Positions 13,328-16,393 of a stretch of DNA of 32,000 bases are shown piece by piece. The notes under the pieces are model-generated. The model did no database searches, was not told the origin of the DNA, and saw only the letters and a list, made by a program, of their open reading frames with translations. Made by a program: the position numbers and the translations under genes. Each line of letters opens with the position of its first letter. The stretch's first letter is position 1. Origin of the DNA: Pseudodesulfovibrio mercurii (GTDB lineage: Bacteria > Desulfobacterota > Desulfovibrionia > Desulfovibrionales > Desulfovibrionaceae). Location of the stretch: NCBI RefSeq assembly GCF_000189295.2, contig NC_016803.1, forward strand, positions 2,670,001 through 2,702,000. Reading direction: 5' to 3'.

Positions 13328-13600
13328 TTATGCGGGGTGCTTTTTCAGGGCCTGCATGAACCGGCCGAAGTGGGGGGCCAGGTCGTCGAAGGGCGGCGTC
13401 TCGCGCATGCGCAGCAGGGCTTCGCCGAAGAGCTTGAGACCGAGGCCGAGGGCGCGGGCCCGGTCCGGGGGCAGGCCGGTGCGCGCTTCGATCCTGCCCA
13501 TGACGACCGCAAGGTCGTCATGGCAGGCGGTTTCGAAGGCCAGTGGCGGGGCCTCGTCGGACAGGGGTTCCACGGTGATGCGGTAGCGGTGTTCGGGCAT
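13328..13600 (-). CDS. DUF3861-like small protein, 90 aa
   Basis: Full ORF (MPEHRYRITVEPL...). Its ATG lies 3 nt after the MarR stop, with GGAGGA upstream inside the MarR tail. The HRYRITVE start, a conserved HDD, and the GLKLFGEALL segment match my memory of DUF3861. No HMM search was run. Confidence 0.65.
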   Translation of the reverse strand: MPEHRYRITVEPLSDEAPPLAFETACHDDLAVVMGRIEARTGLPPDRARALGLGLKLFGEALLRMRETPPFDDLAPHFGRFMQALKKHPA

Positions 13601-13603
13601 GGG

Positions 13604-14164
13604 CTACCGTCCTCCCCGGCCACGTCCGAAGCCGTTGCCCCGGCCTCGGCCCTTACCGAATCCCTTGCCGGGTCCGCCGGGACCGCCGCGTCCGCCCCGG
13701 CCCGGTCCGAAGCCGCGTCCGTTGCCGGGCCCACAGGCGGCGGGGTCCTCGCGCAGGGAGTTGACGAGCTTGCCCAGGATGGTGCGCAGCTGGTCGCGCT
13801 CGGCCTGGTCCAGGCAGTCGAACTGGTTGTCCGCGTCCGTTCCGTTGCCGTCCGTGTCCAGGGCGCGGGCCTGGTCCGTGGGGGAGATGATGAAGCTGCG
13901 CCGGTCCTCCTCGTTGCGCTCCCGGAGGATGAGCCCCCGGTCCTCGAGCTTGCGCAGCAGCTCGCTCAGGGACGAGGAACGCACGTCGAGGATTTCGAGC
14001 AGCTCGCCCTGGGGCATGGGGCCGTTTTCGAGGAGGATGGACAGGACCTGGTGCTGGGCGTGGTGCGCGAGGTCGCGGCGGTGCCCGGCGCGGGCCATGA
14101 GCCGGGAGGCCAGGCGGAAGAGCCCGGCCAGCTCGGCGTTGGTTGCGGGTTGGGCCGGACTCAT
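13604..14164 (-). CDS. MarR-family winged-helix transcriptional regulator with a roughly 44-aa C-terminal Gly/Arg/Phe (RGG-type) tail, 186 aa
   Basis: Track ORF 13604..14350 trimmed to the ATG at 14162-14164 (MSPAQPATN...), which overlaps the upstream stop (ATGA). The wHTH core is QHQVLSILLENGPMPQGELLEILDVRSSSLSELLRKLEDRGLILRERNEEDRRSFIISPT. The tail is ACGPGNGRGFGPGRGGRGGPGGPGKGFGKGRGRGNGFGRGRGGR (23 Gly in 44 residues by my count). Confidence 0.8.
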   Translation of the reverse strand: MSPAQPATNAELAGLFRLASRLMARAGHRRDLAHHAQHQVLSILLENGPMPQGELLEILDVRSSSLSELLRKLEDRGLILRERNEEDRRSFIISPTDQARALDTDGNGTDADNQFDCLDQAERDQLRTILGKLVNSLREDPAACGPGNGRGFGPGRGGRGGPGGPGKGFGKGRGRGNGFGRGRGGR

Positions 14165-14664
14165 GCCAGGCCCATCCTGGCGGCGTAGGCCCGGCCCCTG
14201 GGGCAGGCGGGGGCGCTCAGGGGGCAGTGCTGCTCGCACAGCGGGCAGACCCCGGCGTCCGGTCCGAAGTTGTCGGCGGGCGCACCGCTCACGGCCGCCT
14301 GGAACGCGCCGCCCCGGCCCGGCCGGAACCGGTTCAGCCCCAGGCCGCACGGCCCGCGCCCCAGCCGTTCACCGGCCGGGACCTGGTCGGCGAACCGGCC
14401 CTGCCCGAAACCCTGACCCTGGCCGAAACCTCGACCAGAGCCCTGTCCGGCAGCGTTGCCGAAGCCATAGCCCTGACCCTGGCCGCCGCCGAACCCATTG
14501 CCCTGGCCGCGTCCCTTGCCGGACCGTCCGCGTCCTCTGCCGGAGCCGTTGCCGAACCCCCGGCCGTTGCCGCATCCGGCCCCGGCGCACCCGCGCCGAC
14601 CCCGGCCGCCGTTGCCGCGTCCGAATCCCCAGCCGTCGTATGAATCGTTATTCCAACCAAACAT
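14161..14664 (-). CDS. Gly/Arg/Phe-rich low-complexity protein with a C-terminal four-Cys motif, 167 aa (hypothetical; N-terminal half reminiscent of DUF5320)
   Basis: Track ORF 14161..14745 trimmed to the ATG at 14662-14664 (MFGWNNDSYDGWGFGRG...), which has a strong AAGGAG 7 nt upstream. By my count 40 of the first 90 residues are Gly, in GRG/GFG/GQG repeats. The C-terminus carries CPLCEQHCPLSAPACP (C-x2-C-x3-C-x6-C). Translational coupling to MarR supports that it is coding. Confidence 0.65.
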   Translation of the reverse strand: MFGWNNDSYDGWGFGRGNGGRGRRGCAGAGCGNGRGFGNGSGRGRGRSGKGRGQGNGFGGGQGQGYGFGNAAGQGSGRGFGQGQGFGQGRFADQVPAGERLGRGPCGLGLNRFRPGRGGAFQAAVSGAPADNFGPDAGVCPLCEQHCPLSAPACPRGRAYAARMGLA

Positions 14665-14706
14665 AGTGTTACTCCTTGTGGTTGTATGCTTGCGGCACCT
14701 ATTTGC

Positions 14707-14720
14707 AAAGGTACCTTCCT
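14707..14720. promoter_or_regulatory. Operator-like site 1: 14-mer AAAGGTACCTTCCT containing the perfect palindrome AAGGTACCTT
   Basis: The palindrome is at 14708-14717. It lies 13 nt downstream of the -10 hexamer on the minus strand, around the predicted transcription start and early leader. The 14-mer is identical to site 2. Confidence 0.5.
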
Positions 14721-14730
14721 TTTCTTCCGG

Positions 14731-14758
14731 AATATACAACCGCAAACCCGGCTGTCAA
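14731..14758 (-). promoter_or_regulatory. Near-consensus sigma-70 promoter of the Gly-rich/MarR/DUF3861 operon
   Basis: Minus strand reads TTGACA (14758-14753), a 16-nt spacer, then TATATT (14736-14731). It lies about 67 nt upstream of the ATG at 14664, within the only AT-rich stretch of this intergenic region. Confidence 0.55.
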
Positions 14759-14763
14759 GATGA

Positions 14764-14777
14764 AAAGGTACCTTCCT
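14764..14777. promoter_or_regulatory. Operator-like site 2: 14-mer AAAGGTACCTTCCT containing the perfect palindrome AAGGTACCTT
   Basis: The palindrome is at 14765-14774, 6 nt upstream of the -35 hexamer. The centre-to-centre distance to site 1 is 57 bp. Confidence 0.5.
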
Positions 14778-14844: not shown

Positions 14845-14985
14845 CCCCCCACCCCTCGCGAAGCGGCATCAAAAAGTTTCGGGGGGTGAGAGAGGGGTTG
14901 GGGGGTCCAGGGGGGAAGGGGAGAGAGCGGGGACCCTTTCCAAAGGGTCCCCGCTCTCTCCCCTTCCCCCCTGGCCGCCGGAGGC
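14845..14985 (+). repeat. Dispersed intergenic hairpin element, copy D (long subfamily), abutting the 3' end of the sigma-54 regulator gene
   Basis: The head is CGCGAAGCGGCATCAAAAAGTTTCGGG. A perfect 30-bp stem joins GGGGGGAAGGGGAGAGAGCGGGGACCCTTT (14910-14939) and its exact reverse complement (14942-14971), separated by CC. The tail GGCCGCCGGAGGC ends at 14985, 4 nt before the stop at 14990-14992. Confidence 0.75.
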
Positions 14986-14989
14986 GGCG

Positions 14990-16393
14990 CTAATCCGTCT
15001 GGATGTTGTAGGCCTTGAGTTTGCGGTACAGGGAGCTGCGTTCCAGGCCGATGGCCTTGGCCAGTTGGGAGATGTTGCCGTCGAATTCGCGCAGCTTGGC
15101 TTCGAGGAAGCGGGCCTCGAAGTCGGCGCGGGCCTGCTTGAGGTCGGCCGGGCCCTGGTTGATGAGGTCGTCCAGGGGCGCGGCCTCGGCGGCGTGGCCC
15201 GCACCCGGTTCGGCGGCGCGCGGCGCGGGCTTGAACTCGGGCGGCAGGCGGTCGGCGGTGACGGTGTCGCCGGCGAACATGATGAACATGCGCTCCACGA
15301 AATTCTTGAGCTCGCGCACGTTGCCGGGCCAGGGGTAGCGCGTGAGCACGCTGAGGGCCTCGGGCGAGAAGACGATGGGCTTGAACCCGTGCTGGCGGAC
15401 CAGGGTGTCCATGAAGTCGTTGATCAGCAGGGGGATGTCCTCAACGCGGTCGCGCAGGGGCGGCAGCTCCAGGGGGAAGACCTTGAGCCGGTAGTAGAGG
15501 TCCTCGCGGAAGTTGCCCGCCTCGATCTCCCTGGCCAGGTCCTTGTTGGTGGCGGCGATGACGCGCACGTCCACCTTGATGGTCTTGCGCCCGCCCACGT
15601 GCTCGAAGGCCTGCTCCTGGAGGATGCGCAGGATCTTGGCCTGGGTCTTGAGGGACATGTCCCCGATCTCGTCCAGGAACAGGGTGGAGCCGTCGGCCAG
15701 CTCGAATTTGCCCTCCTGGGCCTTTTCCGCGCCGGTGAAGGCCCCCTTTTCGTGGCCGAACAGCTCGGATTCGATGAGTTCCTCGGGGATGGCCGCGCAG
15801 TTCACGGCCACCAGGGGGCGGTCGGCGCGCGTGGACTGGTTGTGGATGGACCGGGCCACGATCTCCTTGCCCGTGCCGTTCTCGCCGGTGATGAGCACCC
15901 AGGACTCGGTGGGGGCGACCCGGCCGATGACCTCGCGCAGGTCGCCGATGGCCTTGGACACGCCGGTCAGGGTCACGGGCTGCTCCGAGGAGATGCGCGT
16001 CTTGAGGGCCAGGTTCTCCTGGCGCAGGCGGGAAAATTCCAGGCCGTTGCGGGCCGAGACCACGACTTTTTCCAGGGACAGCGGCTTTTCGATGAAGTCG
16101 AAGGCCCCCTTCTTGAGGGCCTTGACCGCCGTCTCGATGGTCCCGTGGCCCGAGATCATGATCACGGGCAGCCCCTCGTAGTCGCGGGACAGGATTTCGA
16201 GGGCCTCGAGGCCGTCCATGCCGGGCAGCCAGATGTCCAGGAAGATCAGGTCCGGGATGTCGGTGCCGAGCAGCTCGAGTCCCTCCTCGCCGGACTCGGC
16301 CTCGACCACGGACAAGCCCTCGTCCTCGAGGATGCCGCGCAGGGAGAGGCGGATGGACTCTTCGTCGTCGATGATCAGGATCTTTGCGGCCAT
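14990..16393 (-). CDS. Sigma-54-dependent response regulator (NtrC family: REC + AAA+ + Fis-type HTH), 467 aa
   Basis: The REC domain is ILIIDDE...DLIFLDIWLPGMDG. The AAA+ domain has Walker A GENGTGKE, the GAFTGA loop (EKGAFTGA) and Walker B LFLDEI. The C-terminal HTH is ISQLAKAIGLERSSLYRKLK. Confidence 0.92.
   Translation of the reverse strand: MAAKILIIDDEESIRLSLRGILEDEGLSVVEAESGEEGLELLGTDIPDLIFLDIWLPGMDGLEALEILSRDYEGLPVIMISGHGTIETAVKALKKGAFDFIEKPLSLEKVVVSARNGLEFSRLRQENLALKTRISSEQPVTLTGVSKAIGDLREVIGRVAPTESWVLITGENGTGKEIVARSIHNQSTRADRPLVAVNCAAIPEELIESELFGHEKGAFTGAEKAQEGKFELADGSTLFLDEIGDMSLKTQAKILRILQEQAFEHVGGRKTIKVDVRVIAATNKDLAREIEAGNFREDLYYRLKVFPLELPPLRDRVEDIPLLINDFMDTLVRQHGFKPIVFSPEALSVLTRYPWPGNVRELKNFVERMFIMFAGDTVTADRLPPEFKPAPRAAEPGAGHAAEAAPLDDLINQGPADLKQARADFEARFLEAKLREFDGNISQLAKAIGLERSSLYRKLKAYNIQTD

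Follow-up and report, generated by a model that had tools for sequence, protein, structure and literature searches.

In the sulfate reducer Pseudodesulfovibrio mercurii ND132, a gene that is absent from the genome annotation, here called g1, is paired with the gene of a MarR-family repressor, and sequence comparisons give good support for regarding the two as one functional unit. The pair lies in a 32 kb stretch of 68% GC DNA (hereafter the window), where three tightly packed genes follow one another head to tail on the minus strand. These are g1 (14161..14664), encoding a protein of 167 amino acids (aa) with a Gly/Arg/Phe-rich body and a C-terminal four-Cys mini-domain; the gene of the MarR-family winged-helix repressor (13604..14164; 186 aa; DND132_2419, WP_014323048.1, EGB15622.1), identified by Pfam match; and a gene for a DUF3861 protein (13328..13600; 90 aa; DND132_2418), likewise identified by Pfam match, which is an optional third member. 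The g1-MarR system is uncharacterised and reasonably widespread in anaerobes. With moderate confidence, we interpret the ND132 pair as a split four-Cys (Cys4) sensor and MarR autorepressor, the two-polypeptide form of an uncharacterised sensor-repressor.

Conserved pairing and natural fusion of g1 and MarR

Conserved synteny, short gaps or overlaps, and natural fusions together support the functional coupling of g1 and MarR that a sequence-only reading of this locus had proposed. When one genome per species was scanned for the MarR recognition-helix pattern, 31 loci were obtained, 26 of them in Desulfobacterota, and a small open reading frame (ORF) with the Cys motif adjoined the MarR gene in 24 of these 26, across four orders, confirming that the two genes co-occur. 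The paired loci cover Desulfovibrionaceae, Desulfobulbaceae, Desulfatibacillum, Desulfobacter and Desulfatiglandales, and their small ORFs end in CP[LI]Cxx[HQ]Cxxxx[PL]xCxKGxA[YF]. In ND132 the MarR start codon overlaps the g1 stop as ATGA (GCATGAGT). The distance from g1 stop to MarR start is -8 to +13 nucleotides (nt) in 23 of the 27 measured pairs, often as an ATGA or TAATG overlap.

The g1 Cys motif was also followed beyond these loci. A word-indexed search with the motif profile returned just 10 gene calls, all fragmentary, and an exhaustive profile search was required; the latter gave 263 cluster representatives at E <= 1e-3, the best 149 of which were examined. Among these 149 are 15 natural g1-MarR fusions, from Clostridia and Desulfobacterota. 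Some read straight through in the g1-MarR order (P0067, P0143, P0211, P0221, P0222, P0226, P0235), and in others the motif occupies the extreme N-terminus and a His/Gly/Arg linker connects it to MarR (P0125, with two copies, P0209, P0210, P0228, P0251, P0256, P0258). A further fusion cluster (P0083) has 118 member sequences, including Hungatella hathewayi WP_022030532.1. The MarR cores of fusions share 52% and 41% identity with that of the window, and the neighbourhoods of three fused or extended MarRs (L032, L033, L041) have no cargo genes in common. Because g1 and MarR are fused into one protein in other bacteria, the pair probably works as one sensor-repressor unit.

The MarR repressor and its predicted operators

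The MarR protein of the window is identical (100%) to P. mercurii WP_014323048.1 / EGB15622.1 and matches the Pfam models MarR (PF01047; 57.8 bits, cut-off 24.6) and MarR_2 (PF12802; 48.8 bits, cut-off 27). Its winged helix-turn-helix occupies residues 36-90 (13895..14059; this and all further features of the pair and its promoter lie on the minus strand) and includes the invariant recognition-helix motif LDVRSSSLSELLRKLE, in which R62, S65, L66, S67, E68, K72 and L73 do not vary across the MarR clade. Between helices 1 and 2 lies a His-rich segment, HRRDLAHHAQH (residues 28-38; 14051..14083), with an invariant H28; the consensus among 30 clade members is HRRDHAHHAQ, and in some relatives the segment is expanded to low-complexity inserts of Gly, Arg and His. 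The protein ends in a polycationic Gly/Arg/Phe tail (residues 144-186; 13607..13735), whose 43 residues include 23 Gly, 8 Arg, 3 Phe and 2 Lys. The closest sequences in the PDB are generic MarR proteins (9QDR, E 3e-14; HosA, E 1e-12), and no curated MarR subfamily model reaches its cut-off for the window MarR; the Zn-dependent AdcR/ZitR model (NF038251) scores 14.9 bits against a cut-off of 175 and was rejected. Literature searches for MarR proteins with low-complexity tails, and for the ND132 locus tags, found nothing.

Two groups of same-clade proteins carry low-complexity sequence at other sites. Firmicute MarRs P0086-P0105 have Gly/Pro/Phe-rich N-terminal extensions of 100-200 aa in which C[MA]PRG motifs recur and a PPRRP(D/N)P(D/E)FLKRR block is conserved, and they have neither a C-terminal tail nor a Cys4 partner. 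In P0079-P0081 and P0096, from Corynebacterium variabile, a Gly/Arg/His insert sits in the loop between helices 1 and 2, the site of the ND132 His cluster.

Upstream of g1, two copies of a short palindrome bracket a good promoter. The first candidate operator, O1 (AAGGTACCTT; 14765..14774), ends 6 nt upstream of the -35 hexamer of a sigma-70-type promoter (14731..14758) composed of TTGACA (14758-14753), a 16-nt spacer and TATATT (14736-14731), a match to 11 of 12 consensus positions. The second copy of AAGGTACCTT, O2 (14708..14717), is centred 57 bp downstream of O1, at about +8 to +17 of the predicted transcription start. Both occurrences of this palindrome in the 32 kb are at the g1 promoter (2 matches, 0.13 expected), in an AT-rich island of 46% GC versus 68% for the window, and the candidate operator can be extended to a palindrome of about 20 bp (ATAAAAAGGTACCTTTTTAT-like). 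A ribosome-binding site, AAGGAG (14672..14677), read directly from the sequence, precedes the g1 ATG by 7 nt.

The same arrangement recurs at most Desulfobacterota loci as aaaGGTACCttt, 8 nt, TTGACA, and a second GGTACC 49-60 bp further on; GGTACC followed by 8 nt and TTGACA was seen at about 18 related loci. A fused-type gene (L032) has it upstream too, and the tail-less relatives of Bifidobacterium and Oscillospiraceae are likewise preceded by GGTACC pairs. Scanning metagenomes for the exact pattern gave 32 loci, comprising 7 ahead of g1+MarR, 15 ahead of a same-clade MarR and about 9 that were unrelated. The invariant recognition helix (R62, S65-E68, K72) fits the invariant operator core, and since the palindrome-promoter-palindrome layout is conserved across the MarR clade, it is likely that MarR autorepresses its operon at the predicted GGTACC operators. 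This is the best-supported functional inference from the locus. Strict helical phasing or looping between O1 and O2 was considered and rejected, as it is not implied by a spacing that varies from 49 to 60 bp between loci.

The g1 protein and its low-complexity segments

The exact ND132 g1 sequence was not found among about 15 billion proteins, the nearest homologue being only 71% identical; since an exact or near-identical sequence is absent from so many proteins, ND132 annotations evidently lack g1. Many homologues have been deposited as fragments of 43-79 aa that start at internal Met codons. An alignment with 11 database homologues, from Pseudodesulfovibrio and related Desulfovibrio-named isolates, shows the g1 frame preserved despite many in-frame indels and both termini conserved, so that the Gly-rich ORF is not frameshifted in relatives. 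The conserved N-terminus reads MFGWNNDAYGGRGFGRGN, and RMGRGPCGMGLNRFRPGRGGAF and GVCPLCEQHCPLSAPSCPKGEAYAARMR are further conserved blocks. In ND132 the N-terminal motif is MFGWNNDSYDGWGFGRGN (residues 1-18; 14611..14664), with M1, F2, G3, N5, G11, G15 and G17 invariant in the alignment, and MFG is the commonest N-terminus among stand-alone members of the wider family (28 of 103). Low-complexity GxG repeats follow (residues 11-90; 14395..14634), differing in length and sequence between species; Gly accounts for 40 of the first 90 residues, as GxG triplets, and short imperfect tandem repeats are present in the DNA. The middle block, RLGRGPCGLGLNRFRPGRGGAF (residues 100-121; 14302..14367), is specific to the Pseudodesulfovibrio clade, where alignment columns R100-F121 are almost invariant.

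Codon-level conservation, which the sequence-only reading had suggested examining, differs along the gene. Against four relatives, the ratio of nonsynonymous to synonymous substitution rates (dN/dS) is 0.09-0.24 over the first 21 codons, and the N-terminal motif is thus under purifying selection as judged from these comparisons, whereas the repeat region is relaxed at 0.35-0.81. In codons 99-167 (14164-14370) the synonymous rate (dS) is 0.16-0.26, versus 0.7-1.3 elsewhere in the gene, though on small counts, and this hints at nucleotide-level constraint ahead of the overlapping MarR start codon.

It is therefore very improbable that g1 is not a functional protein, being either a chance open frame in GC-rich DNA or an ORF of which only the last 30-70 codons are translated. 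Such a reading could appeal to the missing ND132 annotation, the many truncated calls of 43-79 aa, the many spurious Gly/Arg-rich ORFs that arise in the high-GC DNA of the window, and the relaxed repeat region. It is countered by the ATG and strong ribosome-binding site of the conserved MFG start, by purifying selection on the N-terminal motif, by a frame still intact after many indels, by full-length homologues with MFG starts in low-GC genomes as well, and by a promoter position that suits the long form.

AlphaFold2 predicts residues 1-136 of g1 to be disordered, with a confidence score (pLDDT) below 50, and a small folded C-terminus. For the C-terminal 69 aa (25-sequence alignment), the model is a hairpin and a helix at residues 139-167 with pLDDT about 80, and the Cys domain is accordingly modelled as a folded unit on a disordered protein. 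This mini-domain (residues 137-167, GVCPLCEQHCPLSAPACPRGRAYAARMGLA; 14164..14256) reads CPLCEQHCPLSAPAC at the C-terminus of g1, with the spacing C-x2-C-x3-C-x6-C, and all four Cys are invariant among the best 149 motif proteins. The family consensus is CPLCxNHCPLxxPxCxKGxAYA. In about 100 of the 149, all small and stand-alone, the motif forms the C-terminus after a basic Gly/Arg/His-rich body. We propose four features for the family, and g1 itself has them all: an MFG start, a basic disordered region, a CPLCxxHCPLxxPxCxKGxAY C-terminus and an adjoining MarR with the LDVRSSSLSE helix.

Other architectures also contain the motif. Thirteen of the best 149 combine 2-3 motif copies with a DUF4405 / cytochrome-b561-like domain in a membrane protein. 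Eight such DUF4405 / cytochrome-b561-like membrane proteins (P0121, P0124, P0126, P0161, P0166, P0212, P0245, P0253), of 450-510 aa, have Ser/Asp/Asn-rich linkers and then motif copies, each after LE(D/E)YLSKL. P0215 unites in one polypeptide a PAC_bac-like domain (bacterial proteasome-assembly chaperone, 80.6 bits), the four-Cys motif and a long His-rich tail.

Curated collections do not cover g1. In the comparison with Pfam, the MarR and DUF3861 proteins were recognised as expected and g1 was left without any model match; no NCBIfam model matches it either. Together with literature searches that returned no match, this agrees with the earlier statement that no such system had been described. 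The likeness of g1 to DUF5320 (PF17253) that had been suggested was not borne out: the full-length protein had no match at E up to 1, and none appeared for its C-terminal 78 aa or for four family members even with E allowed up to 10. One homologue (P0009) bears the UniRef name 4Fe-4S ferredoxin-type domain, and this candidate was rejected as well, given no Fer4 match and a spacing other than C-x2-C-x2-C-x3-C-P. DUF3079 (PF11278) has the same C-x2-C-x3-C-x6-C spacing as g1, followed by G-x-G, but its model does not match g1 and the close family, even at E up to 10. The motif segment of 9 of the 149 proteins retrieved with the g1 profile does pass the DUF3079 model (e.g., P0121 residues 244-271, 30.2 bits, cut-off 27), which suggests an indirect link between the two motifs; no function for DUF3079 was found in the literature. 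Against PDB sequences, the motif gave only chance matches to the CPLC of RING fingers.

The sequence-only reading was struck by the matching Gly/Arg/Phe repeats of g1 and the MarR tail. The match is real in the ND132 pair, but it is lineage-specific and largely compositional. GRG/GFG chemistry is confined to the high-GC Pseudodesulfovibrio clade, while in other lineages the g1 body and MarR tail are rich in Arg, His, Lys and Gly. Across 23 loci, the Gly and Lys contents of both segments follow locus GC. Gly in the g1 disordered region and in the MarR tail correlate with each other (rho 0.56) and each with GC (rho 0.44 and 0.74), and Phe is uncorrelated between the two (rho 0.15). As Gly in both segments tracks GC and Phe is uncorrelated, the repeat match is not specific, and matching repeat chemistry was rejected as a co-evolved trait. 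Charge is more consistent: the g1 disordered body is positive at 23 of 23 loci (mean net charge +8.6) and the MarR tail at 22 of 23 (mean +6.9), with a MarR core that is neutral to acidic. On these compositional grounds, the conserved trait is a disordered polycation whose composition tracks GC.

In the wider clade, the low-complexity segment may be found at the MarR N-terminus, in the helix 1-2 loop, at the C-terminus or on the partner protein, the Firmicute Gly/Pro/Phe-rich N-terminal extensions and the Corynebacterium variabile loop being examples. Because both segments are polycations, simple tail-to-tail attraction is unlikely, and with it the hetero-association through tails that had been suggested for them; contact with DNA or another polyanion would be the more economical explanation. 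The segments resemble eukaryotic RGG/FG regions in composition only, with GRG, GFG and GQG triplets, predicted disorder and net positive charge; they differ in that their composition is lineage-specific and follows GC, being Arg/His/Lys-rich in relatives. It seems doubtful, then, that they are working parts of the RGG/FG kind that would coat, bridge or co-condense on DNA near the operators, or on RNA, under the control of the Cys4 switch, though such a role would explain the mobility of the low-complexity segment within the MarR clade.

Function of the pair, its third gene and wider meaning

In the split sensor-repressor that we favour, a MarR dimer likely binds the two AAGGTACCTT palindromes that bracket the sigma-70 promoter, as their conservation suggests. 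With O1 abutting the -35 hexamer and O2 just past the predicted start, MarR bound there would likely keep g1, marR and the DUF3861 gene repressed. The overlapping stop and start codons would allow g1 to be made in step with MarR, of which it may be a detachable sensory subunit. Its four-Cys mini-domain could hold a Zn or iron-sulfur centre, and disturbance of that centre by a thiophilic metal, an oxidant or an electrophile would relieve repression. The g1 body and MarR tail may add non-specific DNA affinity and hold both subunits on nucleic acid, and they probably do not bind each other directly.

Several observations weigh against this split-sensor reading. The His of the Cys motif is not universal across the family, and Foldseek found no structural neighbour for the g1 Cys domain. 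At one locus (L015) the order is MarR, operators, g1, with the small ORF downstream rather than upstream, and at two others (L004, L013) g1 and MarR are 138-184 nt apart; in these arrangements g1 looks like a regulated target and not an obligate subunit. Bifidobacterium and CDF-linked Clostridia relatives of the MarR have no Cys-motif partner, so MarR may sense its signal alone. Lastly, the clues to a metal signal and those to a redox or electrophile signal, described below, conflict.

These points lead to the main rival explanation, which we consider rather unlikely: g1 may be regulated cargo, a stress protein acting as a Cys4/His metal buffer or a zinc-knuckle-like nucleic acid chaperone, and MarR would sense alone, for example via H28, H34, H35, H38 and Cys117. 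In every arrangement, that of L015 included, g1 comes after the operators and promoter, and DUF3861 aside the operon has no other cargo. Relatives of this MarR govern exporters (CDF, MFS, CitMHS) without a Cys partner, and the His cluster in MarR is conserved; g1 itself, a disordered and strongly basic protein with a small Cys knot, would suit such a role. The repeated fusion of motif and MarR in Clostridia and Desulfobacterota is, however, hard to square with mere cargo, as is the conserved tight overlap with the MarR start codon. Moreover, the g1 disordered region of ND132 has zero His, so His-based metal buffering cannot be its general role. Alternatively, and with still lower probability, g1 may be an anti-repressor that pulls the MarR dimer off DNA, giving positive feedback or a partner switch once transcription starts. 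This mechanism is established for ArmR, a small, largely unstructured protein that inactivates the MarR-family MexR of Pseudomonas aeruginosa by direct binding (PMC3290565), and g1 is likewise small, largely unstructured, adjacent to its MarR gene and co-expressed with it. Yet ArmR is encoded at another locus under a different repressor, NalC, lacks a Cys motif and never occurs as a fusion with MexR, whereas g1 overlaps the MarR gene and would be made in a fixed ratio to MarR, or is elsewhere fused to it; with a fixed ratio or fusion, the repressor could never act unless the interaction were gated by a signal. There is also no sequence similarity between g1 and ArmR, and the differing genetic organisation (co-transcribed, overlapping, fused elsewhere) sets g1 apart from an ArmR-type protein.

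The nature of the signal can be approached through relatives. In five of them (L051, L054, L057, L071, L072), the MarR gene overlaps by 4 nt a Cation_efflux (CDF) gene (Pfam, 90.6 bits) and the loci share the double-GGTACC promoter; at 214 aa the CDF ORFs are short and may represent truncated transporter calls, and the MarR of L057 is 34% identical to that of the window. Other MarR relatives are paired with MFS or CitMHS transporters, and His/Cys-rich tails or linkers occur in many. The cation-efflux partners, these tails, the HRRDHAHHAQ cluster of MarR and a precedent in Vibrio hint at a metal signal. Cytochrome-b-like fusions of the Cys motif and the oxidoreductase and efflux neighbours of DUF3861 are indirect indications of redox or electrophile stress.

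Known systems offer partial parallels. The ZAS motif of RsrA, the C-x2-C-x-C-x5-C of SoxR and the N-terminal Cys cluster of FNR are Zn-thiolate or iron-sulfur switches, and like these g1 has a compact four-Cys cluster on or beside a transcription regulator as the presumed signal receiver; its spacing and flanking sequence differ, and homology to them was not detected. Autoregulated MarR, OhrR, MexR and HosA share with the window MarR a winged helix-turn-helix core of about 140 aa, palindromic operators over their own promoter and a small operon, but the window MarR has in addition a 43-aa polycationic Gly/Arg tail and, as its partner, a four-Cys mini-domain protein that other organisms join to the MarR in one chain. 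AdcR/ZitR are MarR-family proteins whose DNA binding is set by Zn. DmeR of Vibrio parahaemolyticus is a cobalt-responsive MarR that represses an operon shared with a CDF gene (PMC9820535), an arrangement also found in the five CDF-linked relatives of the window MarR, the likeness being one of arrangement. Compared with AdcR/ZitR (Zn) and DmeR (Co), the ND132 operon has no exporter, and its candidate metal site is on a separate polypeptide.

The third gene appears to be optional cargo, added by this lineage at the end of the operon. It starts 3 nt after the MarR stop; this gap, like the coordinates, ribosome-binding site, Gly counts, ATGA overlap and MarR tail given by the sequence-only reading, was verified in the sequence. 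Its product matches Pfam PF12977 (79.5 bits, cut-off 27) and PDB 3CJL (E 4e-14, residues 5-87). DUF3861 follows the pair in the window and at L003, L006, L008, L015 and L022 only, and in P. thermohalotolerans, P. hydrargyri, D. caledoniensis and P. karagichevae the syntenic site has no DUF3861, MarR being followed by a methyltransferase gene. The three genes had been read as a unit, but only the g1+MarR pair is conserved, DUF3861 being missing in the closest relatives. The proteobacterial plasmid loci L037-L040 repeatedly show DUF3861 closing a small operon, with PadR, an NAD(P)H oxidoreductase, an MBL-fold hydrolase or an MFS/HlyD efflux pair upstream. Judging by such neighbours, it looks like an accessory gene of detoxification-type operons under winged-helix regulators. 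Literature searches on DUF3861 found nothing. A similarity to ubiquitin (phmmer, residues 20-57) was rejected, as single chains gave E values of 0.06-1 and only polyubiquitin repeats scored strongly; the resemblance is probably due to chance.

A 38-nt inverted repeat, probably a terminator or a repetitive extragenic palindromic (REP)-like element, lies upstream of the g1 promoter at 14902-14979. It is 95% complementary, has a 2-nt loop and comes just past the stop of a sigma-54 response-regulator gene (14990..16393).

These results add g1, so far missing, to the annotated genes of a bacterium that serves as a model for mercury methylation, and place its Cys motif in a widespread protein module of anaerobes that lies outside every curated family. 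One MarR clade can now be recognised by its operator, the GGTACC palindromes. The pair provides a testable system for asking how MarR repressors receive signals from accessory Cys domains, and what part long Gly/Arg-rich disordered tails play on bacterial DNA-binding proteins. If those tails did prove to be working parts, bacteria would have a transcription switch built on the low-complexity-domain logic of eukaryotes. More speculatively, if the Cys4 centre binds thiophilic metals, the system may bear on metal handling, including that of Hg, in sulfate reducers.

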